A program made the translations under genes and the position numbers. The notes beneath the pieces are model-generated. The model saw only the letters and a list, made by a program, of their open reading frames with translations, had not been told where the DNA came from and did no database searches. Below are positions 32,550-37,264 of a stretch of 64,000 bases of DNA, one piece after another. The DNA comes from Candidatus Daviesbacteria bacterium RIFCSPLOWO2_01_FULL_39_23 (GTDB lineage Bacteria; Patescibacteriota; Microgenomatia; Daviesbacterales; UBA10151), in NCBI GenBank assembly GCA_001776935.1, contig MFDN01000001.1, positions 101,449 to 165,448 on the forward strand, written 5' to 3'. The first letter of the stretch is position 1; every line of letters starts with the position of its first letter.

Positions 32550-33728
32550 ATGTTTACTAAAATATCTATTCTATTTTTAGCCTGGATAGTAGGGTTGTTT
32601 GCTGTTTCATTTTTAGCAATTTATTTTCTACCAGAATTCGGAAACAGATTTCCTTATGCTGATCAGGTGCTTAGAGTAACGGGTTTGCCTTCTTTTGTGT
32701 GGGGGTTTGGTAATTTTGACGGGGTGCATTATTTAAGAATTGCCCAAAATGGTTATAATGCACAATACTCTCAAGCTTTTTTCCCCCTTTATCCTTTGCT
32801 GGTTAGATTTTTAACGGAGGTAAATTTACTTATACCTAAAAATCCGACAATTGATAGTAGAATATTTGTAGATCCAAGCTATTTTTATAATGGGTTGATA
32901 TTATCGAATATTTTTTTATTTTTAGCACTCATTGTTTTTTATAAATTATTAAAGCTGGACTTTAGTCCAAAAGTGGCTTATGGATCTTTAGTTTTACTTT
33001 TGTCGTTTCCCACAGCATATTATTTTAATTCCATTTATACGGAGTCTCTTTTTTTATTTTTGGTTTTAGGGTCACTTTATTGTGCAAGAAAAGATAATTT
33101 TTTACTAGCAGGGCTATTTGGAGGTTTAGCTTCCGCTACAAGAATTTTCGGTTTACTTTTGATTCCGGTTTTGTTGATTGAATTGTGGCTAAAATTTAAA
33201 AATAAAAGCTTGGAGATGGAAGAAATATCCAAAACGGTTATAGGTCTCCTTTTGGTTCCTTTTGGAACATTGCTTTATATGTTATTTTTACGCTTAAACT
33301 TTGAGAATCCACTATATTTTCTAACTTCCCAACCTCTTTTTGGGGCTGAAAGAACATCCGGTAGTCTTGTTTTTTTGCCGCAAGTGATTTATAGGTACTT
33401 AAAAATTTTTATGACAGTTCCCCCTACCACGCAATTATTTTTTAATGCTTTATTAGAATTTTCATTTACAGTTTTAGTTTTTGCATGTTTGTTGTTATTT
33501 ATAAAGAAAATTAGGCCCAGCTACCTTGTATTTGCTTTAGGATGCCTGATTATACCGACACTAACAGGGACATTTTCTTCAATGCCCAGATATTCCCTGA
33601 TGGGTTTTTTACTTTTGCCGCTTATAGTGCAAGCTTTAGGCAATTATTATAAAGTATTGGTGGTTTTTTTTGTGGCTATTGGTATAATCTTGGTAAGTTT
33701 ATTCACGCGAGGGTACTGGGTAGCATGA
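32550..33728 (+). CDS. Polytopic membrane protein, PIG-V/DUF2029-like GT-C mannosyltransferase candidate
   Basis: 392 aa and very hydrophobic. It contains YSQAFFPLYPLLVRFL, a motif I associate with PIG-V-type lipid-linked-sugar mannosyltransferases. Recognition is weak. Confidence 0.45.
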   Translation: MFTKISILFLAWIVGLFAVSFLAIYFLPEFGNRFPYADQVLRVTGLPSFVWGFGNFDGVHYLRIAQNGYNAQYSQAFFPLYPLLVRFLTEVNLLIPKNPTIDSRIFVDPSYFYNGLILSNIFLFLALIVFYKLLKLDFSPKVAYGSLVLLLSFPTAYYFNSIYTESLFLFLVLGSLYCARKDNFLLAGLFGGLASATRIFGLLLIPVLLIELWLKFKNKSLEMEEISKTVIGLLLVPFGTLLYMLFLRLNFENPLYFLTSQPLFGAERTSGSLVFLPQVIYRYLKIFMTVPPTTQLFFNALLEFSFTVLVFACLLLFIKKIRPSYLVFALGCLIIPTLTGTFSSMPRYSLMGFLLLPLIVQALGNYYKVLVVFFVAIGIILVSLFTRGYWVA

Positions 33729-34396
33729 AAATTTCAATTGTAATTCCTGCATATAACGAGGCAAAAAATATAGGGTTAGTCCTGGATTCCTTAAGAAGGG
33801 AAAAGTTCCCTATTGTAGTTGTGGATGATGGCTCTAAAGATAAAACATTCGATATTGCATCAAAATATGTAAGGACTTTGAGGGACTTAACTGTTTTAAG
33901 GCATAAAGTAAATTTAGGGAAAGGAGCTGCCTTAAAGACTGGATGCGAATCTGCCATCCTAAGTGGAGCAGAGGGTATTATTATTATGGATTCGGATGGA
34001 CAGCATCGGGTTGCGGATCTTCCAAAATTTATAGAAGTATTAAATGGTGGAAAATATGATATAGTTTTTGGCTCAAGGGATATAAACATGAACATGCCCT
34101 TAGTAAGGTTTATAGGCAATAAAGTAGCCTCGGCATTAATTTCTTTTCTTTTTGGGATTTATATCTCGGACCTTATTTGTGGTTTCCGGGCGTTTACCAA
34201 GACTGCGTACCGAAAGTTAAACTTAAAATCATCCAATTATGGAATAGAAACTGAGATGGTTGCTAAGGTAGGAAAGCTCCGCCTAAAGCATTGTGAAATA
34301 CCAGTGGAGACTGTATACTATGATAAATTCAAAGGTGTTACCATTCTGGATGCTTTAGGAATTCTCTTTGATGTATTCATTTGGAAAATAAGGTAA
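33725..34396 (+). CDS. Polyprenyl-phosphate sugar synthase-like GT2 (GtrB/DPM1-like)
   Basis: MKISIVIPAYNEAKNIGLVLDSL...VVVDDGSKDKTFDIA...GKGAALKTG...IIIMDSDGQHR. ATGA overlap with the upstream gene. Confidence 0.6.
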   Translation: MKISIVIPAYNEAKNIGLVLDSLRREKFPIVVVDDGSKDKTFDIASKYVRTLRDLTVLRHKVNLGKGAALKTGCESAILSGAEGIIIMDSDGQHRVADLPKFIEVLNGGKYDIVFGSRDINMNMPLVRFIGNKVASALISFLFGIYISDLICGFRAFTKTAYRKLNLKSSNYGIETEMVAKVGKLRLKHCEIPVETVYYDKFKGVTILDALGILFDVFIWKIR

Positions 34397-34403
34397 TTTA
34401 AAT

Positions 34404-34736
34404 ATGATAATTGGCTTGCAACTTGTAGCAATAGTATTTGCATTAATAATGATTTATTTTGCCTATCTTCACTATAGTAGGGGTGAGCTAAATGGAGTAG
34501 AGGTATTGTCATGGTTAATTATTTGGCTTAGCGCGATTATAATCGTAGTTTTTCCCGATTTACTTCGGACTTTTGCGCAAACTTTTGCTATTTCCCGGCT
34601 GTTTGACTTAATGATAGTAGGCGGATTTATAGTTGTCATTCCCATGATCTATATATCTTATGTAAGGACGAAAAGGCTTGAGAAGAAATTAGAAGACTAT
34701 ATTAGGAAAGAAACTTTAAAACAAACTAAAAAATAG
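34404..34736 (+). CDS. DUF2304-family small membrane protein (GtrA-like accessory of GT2 lipid-sugar synthases)
   Basis: 110 aa. YSRGELNGVEVLSWLIIWL...VFPDLLRTFAQTFAISRLFDLMIVGGF...ISYVRTKRLEKKLEDY matches the DUF2304 pattern as I recall it. It lies directly downstream of the GtrB-like gene. Confidence 0.55.
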   Translation: MIIGLQLVAIVFALIMIYFAYLHYSRGELNGVEVLSWLIIWLSAIIIVVFPDLLRTFAQTFAISRLFDLMIVGGFIVVIPMIYISYVRTKRLEKKLEDYIRKETLKQTKK

Positions 34737-35575: not shown

Positions 35576-35584
35576 GGATCAAAG

Positions 35585-36529
35585 ATGACAGATAAGAAAT
35601 TTTCTTTAAAGGGTAAAAATATTTTAGTAACCGGAGGCCGAGGGTTTGTAGGTAAGCATGTAGTAAGCAAGCTGGAAAGTAAGCAGCCAAAAAAGATCTT
35701 TGCTCCCCGTTCTAAGGAATTTGATTTAAGAGATTCTAAGATATGCAAAAAAGTTGTCCAAGGGGCGGATATAGTTATACATATGGCAGCAAACGTCGGC
35801 GGTATTGGGTATAACAGGGAAAAACCCGGCGAACTTTTTTATGATAATTTAGTTATGGGAGTTCATTTGATGGAAGAAGCAAGGATTGCAGGAGTCAGTA
35901 AATTTGTAAGTCTGGGAACCATCTGTCAGTATCCAAAAATAACCAGCGTTCCTTTTAAAGAGGATAATTTGTGGAATGGCTACCCGGAGGAGACAAATGC
36001 TCCGTATGGTCTGGCTAAAAAAATGCTGCTTGTACAATCTCAAGCATACAGACAACAATACGGTTTTAATGCGATTCATCTTATGCTTGTTAATTTATAC
36101 GGTCCAGGAGATAATTTTGATCCTTCTTCGTCTCATGTAATTCCTGCCCTAATAAAAAAATTCGTTGATGCCAAAAAAAGAAAGGATGAATTTGTGGTTG
36201 TTTGGGGAACAGGGAATCCCACAAGAGAGTTTTTATATGTGGAAGATGCAGCTGAAGCCATTGTATTGGCAACAGAAAAATATAACAAGACAGAACCTGT
36301 AAATATCGGATCTTCTTCGGAAATTTCTATTAAAGATTTGGCGCTGCTAATAAAAAAAATGACGGGATTTGAGGGTAGTATTGTCTGGGATAAGACTAAA
36401 CCAGACGGGCAACCAAGAAGGAAGTTAGATGTATCAAGAGCAGAAAAAGAATTTTCATTTAAATCAAGAATAGGCTTTGAAGAGGGTTTGAAAAAAACAA
36501 TCCTTTGGTATTTTCAACAATATAAATAA
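35585..36529 (+). CDS. fcl: GDP-L-fucose synthase (GDP-4-keto-6-deoxy-D-mannose 3,5-epimerase/4-reductase) family
   Basis: Near-diagnostic blocks [41 protein letters not shown] and [15 protein letters not shown], compared with E. coli Fcl. Confidence 0.8.
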
Positions 36530-37264
36530 ATGAAGCATAAACAAAGAAGGTTTTTGCATAAAGGAAATTTTATTTCTTTGATAATTCCGGTTCTAAATGA
36601 GGAAAAAACTTTAGCAACCATTATAGATAAGTGTTCTACTCAGTCGGTGGTTAAGCAGTTAGTTATAGTAAATGACGGATCGACAGACGATACCCGTAGA
36701 ATATTAAATAAGATTAGTAAAAAAAGCAGTTCAAGACTCATTATTACAATATTGCATCATGATAATAACTTAGGGAAAGGTGCAGCAATAAAAACCGGAT
36801 TAGGCAAGGCGACAGGTAAATATGTGATGGTGCAGGATGCTGATTTGGAATATTCACCTGATGAAATCAAGCATTTATATAATAAGGCTGAAGAAACGGA
36901 AAGCGGGATAGTCTTTGGTACAAGATCGAATCATAAAAAAAAGGGGTATTTACTTGCTCAGCTGGGAAATTGGTATTTAAATTTGATGTTTAATTTTTTG
37001 TTTGGATATCATTTAACGGATAGCTATACCTGTTACAAATTAATACCCAGAACGATTTGGGAAAAGATGAAGCTGAGGTCAAATGGATTTGAAATTGATG
37101 CTGAGTTAATTGCAAAATTAGGTATATGGGGATACAAGATTACGGAGATTCCAATTTCGTATTTCCCCCGTAAATATTCTGAGGGTAAAAAAATTAAATG
37201 GTTAGATCTTTTTAAAGCAACAGGAGCCGCAATAAAAGTACGCCTTTTAGGAAGCAGTATCTAA
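36530..37264 (+). CDS. Polyprenyl-phosphate mannose/glucose synthase-like GT2 (DPM1/Ppm1-like, soluble)
   Basis: ISLIIPVLNEEKTL...VIVNDGSTDDT...LGKGAAIKTG...VQDADLEYSPDE. Confidence 0.6.
   Translation: MKHKQRRFLHKGNFISLIIPVLNEEKTLATIIDKCSTQSVVKQLVIVNDGSTDDTRRILNKISKKSSSRLIITILHHDNNLGKGAAIKTGLGKATGKYVMVQDADLEYSPDEIKHLYNKAEETESGIVFGTRSNHKKKGYLLAQLGNWYLNLMFNFLFGYHLTDSYTCYKLIPRTIWEKMKLRSNGFEIDAELIAKLGIWGYKITEIPISYFPRKYSEGKKIKWLDLFKATGAAIKVRLLGSSI

Follow-up and report, generated by a model that had tools for sequence, protein, structure and literature searches.

Candidate polyprenyl-phosphate sugar synthases and neighbouring membrane glycosyltransferases in a Daviesbacteria genome

In several Gram-positive and mycobacterial systems, a sugar is charged onto a lipid monophosphate by a glycosyltransferase family 2 (GT2) enzyme, with the help of a small membrane protein of the DUF2304 family, and is then used by a GT-C membrane glycosyltransferase. 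In S. pyogenes, the DUF2304 protein GacJ (113 aa, three transmembrane helices) co-purifies with the GT2 GacI and drops its apparent Km for undecaprenyl phosphate (Und-P) from 18.7 to 1.1 μM; the N-acetylglucosamine (GlcNAc) lipid made by GacI, GlcNAc-P-Und, is used by the GT-C GacL, and the flippase of the system, GacK, is Wzx-like (bioRxiv 10.1101/180810). Similarly, M. tuberculosis PpgS (Rv3631), helped by Rv3632, makes polyprenyl-P-linked N-acetylgalactosamine (GalNAc) for the GT-C Rv3779 (PMC3485146; PMC9671496), and EpaI/EpaJ of Enterococcus faecalis and WpsA/WpsB of Lactococcus lactis are further GT2/DUF2304 pairs (PMC8327497). A GT2 of another type, PgfS, acts with the GT-C PgfM1 to add GalNAc to surface proteins (PMC12041528). 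Here we describe three candidate enzymes of this kind, GT2a, GT2b and GT2d, and a DUF2304 protein encoded in the genome of Candidatus Daviesbacteria bacterium RIFCSPLOWO2_01_FULL_39_23, within a 64-kb stretch of contig MFDN01000001.1 (positions 101,449 to 165,448; analysed as a whole and called the window throughout).

We put at roughly three in four the probability that the enzymes encoded here charge donors in the cytoplasm for several extracytoplasmic glycosylation pathways of a bacterium of the Candidate Phyla Radiation (CPR; Microgenomates group). From the families, predicted fold, motifs and conserved neighbourhoods observed here, we infer that GT2a, GT2b and GT2d would each attach a single sugar, taken from a nucleotide sugar, to polyprenyl monophosphate at the inner membrane face, and that, once flipped, the lipid-linked sugar would serve GT-C enzymes outside in decorating the cell surface. 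The DUF2304 protein would serve as membrane partner, a role that in known systems consists of binding the enzyme and reducing its Km for lipid; GT2b would probably load the product of an adjoining four-gene tailoring block, and GT2d would be a donor synthase with two transmembrane helices of its own. An earlier reading of the letters alone (the original prediction) had likewise proposed the donor side of a GT-C glycosylation system, and this core idea is supported by sequence, predicted fold and gene neighbourhood, while several of its details are revised below.

Three candidate GT2 enzymes of the lipid-phosphate type

The window holds eight GT2 genes, which served as an internal control for family assignment. 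The three lipid-sugar-synthase candidates of the original prediction and the DUF2304 gene are all present where it had placed them (Table 1), with Pfam E-values far beyond chance. In a search of PDB sequences, only these three of the eight GT2s match lipid-phosphate GT2s (dolichyl-phosphate mannose synthase, DPMS; ArnC; GtrB) across the whole catalytic domain, whereas the matches of the control GT2s tested are confined to the N-terminal half: chondroitin synthase, WrtF and SpsA are best for GT2c, and GmaR and the peptide S-glycosyltransferase SunS are the best solved relatives of the GT2 at 30705-31493. PpgS, AglJ, PgfS and ArnC take the top NCBIfam ranks for the three candidates, and an all-against-all comparison of the window GT2s makes GT2a and GT2b mutual closest paralogs (88 bits over ~195 residues). 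A DxD(xQ)-type motif is found in GT2a (DSDGQH) and GT2b (DAD at residue 103), with a variant, ECDMQD, in GT2d. Transmembrane helices predicted by hydropathy scan number two in GT2d, both C-terminal, three in the DUF2304 protein and none in GT2a or GT2b; for membrane anchoring, GT2d has its own two helices, GT2a its DUF2304 partner and GT2b neither.

Weak partial NCBIfam matches to PgaC and NodC might suggest processive synthesis of a polysaccharide such as cellulose, chitin or poly-N-acetylglucosamine by these GT2s. Those matches, however, are restricted to the N-terminal nucleotide-binding half, the candidates are just 223-322 aa long and carry zero to two transmembrane helices with no multi-helix channel domain, and the QxxRW motif is absent from all eight window GT2s, all of which makes a processive function extremely improbable. 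This identity was dropped for GT2a, GT2b and GT2d on the grounds of the missing motif and the too few helices. The original prediction had named assignment to a processive or a soluble-acceptor GT2 clade as the outcome that would count against it; because the three enzymes match lipid-phosphate GT2s best and lack QxxRW, that outcome was not observed.

Three of the remaining GT2s, 15053-15952, 15955-16758 and 30705-31493, all on the plus strand, form a separate paralog group (107-142 bits mutually), which, from the matches of the member at 30705, may act in cytoplasmic protein glycosylation and not on lipid-linked glycans.

The GT2a and DUF2304 pair in a conserved module

The original prediction had called GT2a GtrB-like, a label that gives way to a likeness to PpgS, GacI and DPMS. 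The best NCBIfam match of GT2a, over its full length, is the PpgS equivalog model NF058614 (121.9 bits, cut-off 370), followed by AglJ (98.8 bits) and PgfS (63.5 bits), and its closest solved match is Pyrococcus DPMS (5mlz; 1.4e-13, residues 1-220), with ArnC and GtrB next. Residues D89-S-D91-G-Q93-H94 align to DADLQH of DPMS. An AlphaFold2 (AF2) model, computed from an alignment of 33 homologs, has a predicted local distance difference test score (pLDDT) of 84 and a predicted template modelling score of 0.81, and the top 17 Foldseek matches to it are all ArnC, GtrB or DPMS, with TM-scores of 0.67-0.79. Two hydrophobic stretches that the hydropathy scan flagged in GT2a correspond in the predicted structure to a long helix (126-143) and a C-terminal helix (207-222), which, in the model, are read as lying at the membrane interface and not across it. 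GT2a is, on its sequence matches, probably a GT-A catalytic subunit with a DxDxQ metal site.

The DUF2304 gene, the only one in the window, begins 7 nt after GT2a on the same strand, in keeping with the predicted immediate succession. This pairing was traced by scanning one genome per species with the GT2a-homolog alignment, which gave 80 loci (numbered here with the prefix L), and by searching them with a DUF2304 profile built from short proteins only, natural DUF2304-GT2 fusions being excluded. Outside the window, 13 loci encode a GT2 with a score of 142 bits or more to GT2a, and in all 13 the next gene downstream, on the same strand, is a DUF2304 open reading frame (ORF), at a distance of -18 to +41 nt; two of these paired loci are labelled archaeal. 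More distant GT2s have a DUF2304 partner in about 11 of 67 cases, two of which are N-terminal DUF2304-GT2 fusions. The existence of natural fusions lends indirect support to a physical interaction of GT2a with the DUF2304 protein. By its architecture, the pair is predicted to form a synthase of two subunits like GacI/GacJ or PpgS/Rv3632; its complex formation and stimulation would be backed, indirectly, by the strict gene pairing and the fusions. The original prediction had given DUF2304 no role; by analogy with GacJ and Rv3632, it would be an activating membrane subunit.

The fusion proteins themselves (L048 and L078; 350 and 359 aa) carry DUF2304 at the N terminus and GT2 at the C terminus and come from Gaiellales and a deltaproteobacterial metagenome-assembled genome (MAG). 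GT2 ORFs of similar size (348-350 aa) in L047, L051 and L060 are maybe fusions too.

With respect to the sugar, every characterised pair found (GacI, EpaI, WpsA, PpgS) uses a UDP-linked N-acetylhexosamine (HexNAc), and HexNAc, either GlcNAc or GalNAc, is therefore the best guess for GT2a. This class, favoured by precedent, was missing from the original list of mannose, glucose, xylose or a 6-deoxyhexose.

The start of GT2a overlaps the stop of a PIG-V-like GT-C gene by 4 nt (ATGA), and such a GT-C lies directly 5' of GT2a in four other loci (L004, L011, L013, L024) and within 2.5 kb in two (L005, L006). The wider arrangement, here module A, runs PMT_2 GT-C, GT2 30705, GT4 31402, PIG-V-like GT-C, an optional Fcl-like short-chain dehydrogenase/reductase (SDR), GT2a, DUF2304 and GT2c, and recurs, whole or in part, in L004, L006, L007, L011, L013 and L024. 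An ortholog of the PMT_2 GT-C of the 29042 type stands upstream of the module in L004, L006, L007 and L024, where GT2 30705 is also kept; GT4 31402 is retained in L004-L007, L011 and L024, and GT2c follows DUF2304 in L004, L006, L007, L011, L013 and L086. Orthologs of the Fcl-like SDR (450-530 bits) adjoin GT2a or GT2c in L005-L007, L013, L086 and L087. Donor pair and GT-C are encoded together, matching the expectation of the three-component model.

The content of module A also admits a different use of the GT2a product. Because the module holds three cytoplasmic glycosyltransferases, conserved within it, and no phosphoglycosyl transferase (PF00953, PF02397) was found among the scanned ORFs of the window, GT2a and DUF2304 might act as a primer in the manner of Lactococcus WpsA/WpsB or of AglJ from archaea: polyprenyl-P-HexNAc would be extended by GT2 30705, GT4 31402 and GT2c, flipped by the Wzx-like protein, which is the only flippase-type gene product found in the window, and transferred en bloc by a GT-C. 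The precedent is WpsA/WpsB, a pair of the GacI/GacJ type whose product primes a side chain; WpsC-F lengthen it, a Wzx-type protein flips it and the membrane protein WpsJ attaches it (PMC8327497); AglJ is, moreover, the second-best NCBIfam match of GT2a. Against this, the genome could hold an initiating transferase at another locus, the gene overlap of the GT-C with GT2a fits direct use of a single sugar equally well, and the products of GacI, EpaI and PpgS are used as single sugars. We regard the primer role as tentative, and as the less probable of the two fates for the GT2a product; by analogy with WpsA/WpsB, it is nonetheless the respect in which the term monosaccharide donor, as used in the original prediction, may fail for GT2a. 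The preferred reading remains that GT2a and DUF2304 supply a single lipid-linked sugar.

GT2b, GT2d and their surroundings

GT2b scores best with AglJ in NCBIfam (98.9 bits), followed by ArnC (70.5 bits) and PpgS (63.1 bits), and its best PDB match is ArnC (4.8e-17, residues 15-220). Orthologs across Microgenomates are 59-85% identical, and near six of the seven that score at least 300 bits there is a tailoring block consisting of a GFO oxidoreductase, a 4,6-dehydratase-like SDR, a C-methyltransferase (PF08421+PF08484) and an FdtA-like cupin; in the window this block runs convergently towards GT2b. On the far side of it, the GT-C at 41143-42981 falls just below the PF13231 cut-off (24.2 bits versus 26.1) and scores 348 bits to the local PMT_2 profile. 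Its synteny with the adjoining methyltransferase is kept in L087 and L088, and in L085 the order is PMT, methyltransferase, GT2b. More distant GT2b relatives are directly followed by one to four PMT_2 GT-C genes, and in L092 the gene in that place encodes a relative (206 bits) of a 668-aa polytopic protein of the window. The gene neighbourhoods thus give good evidence that enzymes of the GT2b type supply PMT-type GT-Cs, and the PMT_2 GT-C at 41143 and the methyltransferase at 43011 are likely the acceptor-side partner of GT2b.

The same parts are wired differently in two other loci (L089, 7247-8687; L090, 3827-5258), where tandem GT2b-like genes (~120 and ~300 bits) are preceded by an oppositely oriented gene for a PIG-V-like GT-C.

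A bolder proposal, which we consider doubtful, is that GT2b loads a C-methyl-branched deoxy sugar onto polyprenyl phosphate for use by at least 13 GT-C enzymes and two uncharacterised polytopic families (2889-10443 and 57892-59967). To our knowledge, lipid-linked donors of this sugar class have not been described; if the proposal is true, an organism with a very small genome would devote unusual donors to heavy surface glycosylation.

GT2b, and possibly the other candidates, could also be a soluble GT-A enzyme whose acceptor is a protein or small molecule, such as a GpgS/MpgS-like transferase or another cytoplasmic one. GT2b has neither a transmembrane helix nor a DUF2304-type partner, and glucosyl-3-phosphoglycerate synthases are found among its PDB matches (~1e-6) and from rank 18 in the fold search with GT2a. 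Yet ArnC is the best match of GT2b by ten orders of magnitude and reaches past the core GT-A domain to residue 220, the closest paralog of GT2b is GT2a, and PMT_2 GT-C genes directly follow its relatives. Eukaryotic DPM1 has no transmembrane helix. The mycobacterial Ppm1/D2 is likewise devoid of one (PMC3485146). A soluble role is accordingly judged unlikely, and GT2b is retained as a candidate lipid-sugar synthase.

GT2d had been predicted to be ArnC-like with C-terminal transmembrane helices. Its ORF encodes 336 aa from an upstream TTG (61853) and 322 aa from the ATG at 61811, the start originally given, which is real and the more plausible because the overlap with the upstream stop is then only 8 nt. 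The solved Synechocystis GtrB (5ekp), a described polyisoprenyl-phosphate glycosyltransferase, matches GT2d with an E-value of 2e-62 (residues 21-321 against 28-329, in the 336-aa numbering used for GT2d), and the alignment includes the transmembrane helices at 245-263 and 281-299. ArnC also aligns at full length, at 6e-29, and the NCBIfam scores are 214.3 bits for PgfS (cut-off 500) and 116.5 bits for ArnC (cut-off 529). The two helices are thus confirmed, the affinity to ArnC is replaced by one to GtrB, and GT2d is, as judged from these alignments, a predicted polyprenyl-phosphate glycosyltransferase of the GtrB/PgfS type.

If GT2d were the ArnC of an aminoarabinose-like (Arn) pathway, that pathway would call on a UDP-glucose dehydrogenase, a decarboxylase-like SDR (UXS/ArnA-like) and a DegT aminotransferase, which are indeed encoded nearby at 54193-57895; ArnC aligns with the whole of GT2d, and the best fold match of a neighbouring 691-aa protein is ArnT. 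This pathway does not hold: the nearby aminotransferase resembles RfbH (346 bits) and not ArnB (91 bits); in addition, GtrB is far closer to GT2d than ArnC is, the ArnC model score lies well under its cut-off, and the window scans detected neither a formyltransferase nor an ArnD-like deformylase. The Arn-like pathway is thus very unlikely and was rejected, the gene at 62743 being a generic aspartate aminotransferase. We therefore keep to the GtrB/PgfS-type assignment.

The 691-aa protein is encoded two genes downstream of GT2d and has no sequence match in Pfam, NCBIfam or PDB. Its AF2 model (pLDDT 89) finds ArnT, STT3, PglB and Pmt4 as best folds at a TM-score of just ~0.3, and in its family an aspartate, D41, is invariant, and D40 nearly so, right after the first transmembrane helix. 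The family comprises 75 database proteins, of which the few with a source name are from an uncultured bacterium or Daviesbacteria. Relatives adjoin RfbH-like genes and not GT2d-like ones, and in L167 the ortholog comes immediately after an RfbH-like gene.

The gene that separates GT2d from that of the 691-aa protein (59980-60819, minus strand) encodes a 279-aa protein with no transmembrane helix and no match in any library searched. In L086 a homolog (149 bits; 5847-6593) is encoded immediately after the GT2b ortholog, and the protein may regularly accompany lipid-sugar synthases.

Several observations weigh against a donor-charging role for the region. GT2a, GT2b and GT2d all fall short of the NCBIfam equivalog cut-offs (PpgS 122 versus 370, PgfS 214 versus 500, ArnC 70 or 117 versus 529), and none of them is therefore an ortholog of a characterised enzyme. 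The metal motif of GT2d, E-C-D-M-Q-D, has ExD in place of the DxD of GtrB-type enzymes, and GT2b is without a helix and without a membrane partner subunit. No GtrA-family flippase gene was found in the window, and a linkage of GT2d to the 691-aa protein was not confirmed in the loci of three relatives. Finally, the conserved loci belong mostly to one CPR lineage, and their synteny could partly reflect shared ancestry instead of a common function.

Genomic setting and comparison with known systems

The window has a GC content of 32-40%, close to 34% for the greater part, and tightly packed genes, nearly all of which, by Pfam and NCBIfam scans, encode glycosyltransferases, sugar-nucleotide enzymes or polytopic membrane proteins (Table 1). 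Identical copies of the GT2a protein are found on groundwater metagenome contigs and in the MAG assembly GCA_001776655.1, and homologs carry the source names Daviesbacteria, Microgenomates or Patescibacteria. The interval 33725-37264 also includes two genes that the original prediction left unnamed, GT2c and the Fcl-like SDR.

Table 1. Coordinates, strand and supporting matches of the principal features of the window
Feature	Coordinates	Strand	Support
Wzx-like flippase candidate	1414..2892	+	PF13440 Polysacc_synt_3, E 1.8e-52
Two PMT_2-type GT-C (27421-29064, 29042-30688), head of module A	27421..30688	+	PF13231, E 6e-12 and 3.5e-12
GT2, not of lipid-sugar-synthase type, module A	30705..31493	+	PF00535, E 2.7e-20
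GT4 cytoplasmic glycosyltransferase, module A	31402..32547	+	PF00534, E 1e-25
PIG-V-like GT-C membrane glycosyltransferase	32550..33728	+	PF04188, E 2.1e-13, 50.9 bits (cut-off 22.4); ~7 transmembrane helices
GT2a, predicted GacI/PpgS-type catalytic subunit, 223 aa	33725..34396	+	PF00535, E 5e-27
DUF2304 small membrane protein, 110 aa, three transmembrane helices	34404..34736	+	PF10066, E 1.4e-16, 61.1 bits (cut-off 25.5)
GT2c, TuaG/WcaA-like GT2, not of lipid-sugar-synthase type, module A	34742..35575	+	NCBIfam TuaG, 74 bits
GDP-L-fucose-synthase-like SDR (nucleoside diphosphate-4-keto-6-deoxyhexose epimerase/reductase)	35585..36529	+	NCBIfam Fcl, 7.7e-87, 291.6 bits (cut-off 500)
GT2b, DPM1/AglJ/ArnC-like candidate synthase without transmembrane helix, 244 aa	36530..37264	+	PF00535, E 2.7e-32
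Sugar-nucleotide tailoring block: GFO/MocA oxidoreductase, 4,6-dehydratase-like SDR, C-methyltransferase, FdtA/cupin	37247..41052	-	Pfam, NCBIfam
PMT_2 GT-C (41143-42981) and S-adenosylmethionine-dependent methyltransferase (43011-43718)	41143..43718	+	PF13231, E 4.3e-05
691-aa polytopic membrane protein, candidate GT-C	57892..59967	-	AF2 fold matches; no family match
GT2d, GtrB/PgfS-type, 322 aa from ATG, two C-terminal transmembrane helices	60843..61811	-	PF00535, E 2.4e-22

The original count of about 16 GT-C candidates is reduced to 13 with sequence support, namely 11 PMT_2/PMT ORFs, the gene at 12188-13402 (local PMT_2 profile, E 1.7e-11) and the PIG-V-like protein. The 691-aa protein, with weak fold support, would be a fourteenth, and three polytopic paralogs at 2889-10443 are without a family.

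Eleven PMT_2-type paralogs are found in the 64-kb window (10510-30688), seven of them of 545-581 aa and scoring 575-660 bits to a profile of the local set, and tandem duplication specific to this lineage seems to have expanded the array. The three paralogs without a family (2889-6341, plus; 6341-8347, plus; 8344-10443, minus) are 1150, 668 and 699 aa long, have 11-13 predicted transmembrane helices and score 250-450 bits mutually. None of the three has a Pfam match, and the 668-aa member, the one tested further, has none among NCBIfam models or PDB sequences; they may constitute an undescribed GT-C-like family.

A second sugar pathway occupies 43732-51063 (minus strand) together with an RfbH-like dehydrase at 56672-57895 (plus strand, 346 bits). 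Its members include a glucose-1-phosphate cytidylyltransferase (264 bits), a CDP-glucose 4,6-dehydratase (210 bits), an SDR, an RmlC/FdtA-like cupin, a second C-methyltransferase, a GFO oxidoreductase and a DUF5672 protein, a gene content that suggests CDP-linked dideoxy or C-methyl hexoses.

How, then, does this locus compare with described systems? Literature searches on glycosylation in CPR or Microgenomates bacteria turned up nothing specific, and the closest comparisons come from other groups. GT2b resembles DPM1, Ppm1, AglJ and ArnC in its catalytic domain, its DAD motif and the region that follows the core, and, like DPM1 and Ppm1/D2, it has no transmembrane helix; unlike in those systems, no partner (DPM2/3, Ppm1/D1 or DUF2304) is encoded beside it. 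We know of no characterised member of the DPM1/Ppm1/AglJ/ArnC group that is linked to a C-methyltransferase sugar pathway. GT2d shares with GtrB (Synechocystis sll0501) and PgfS (Streptococcus mutans) its full length and both C-terminal helices, PgfS being its best NCBIfam model, and differs in its ExD motif, in the absence of a detected GtrA flippase gene from the window and in a putative GT-C neighbour that belongs to no described family.

The likeness of the GT2a pair to PpgS/Rv3632 with Rv3779 lies in the best full-length NCBIfam match and in the DUF2304 partner of an enzyme whose product serves a GT-C outside the membrane, in a system with homologs in Corynebacterium glutamicum. In M. tuberculosis, however, the GT-C gene is non-adjacent; GT2a is far below the PpgS cut-off, and no UDP-Glc/GalNAc 4-epimerase was identified beside it. 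With GacI/GacJ and GacL, EpaI/EpaJ and WpsA/WpsB, the locus shares a GT2 of ~220-240 aa without transmembrane helices followed by a gene for a ~110-aa DUF2304 protein with three of them, a GT-C in the locus, a Wzx-like flippase nearby and natural fused forms. The host here is a CPR bacterium, the module includes a fucose-synthase-like SDR, and the adjacent GT-C is PIG-V-like (PF04188), a family that the texts cited do not name for GacL or WpsJ.

The arrangement corresponds to those known from streptococci and mycobacteria, and it points to no new mechanism. What the locus adds is the extension of the Gram-positive and mycobacterial scheme of lipid-monophosphate sugar donor, DUF2304 activator and GT-C to uncultured CPR bacteria, together with concrete hypotheses on the enzyme, its partner and the likely class of sugar. 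It also draws attention to two membrane-protein families that are possibly undescribed relatives of GT-C enzymes, and to a conserved Microgenomates module in which the donor pair is coupled to a PIG-V-like GT-C.

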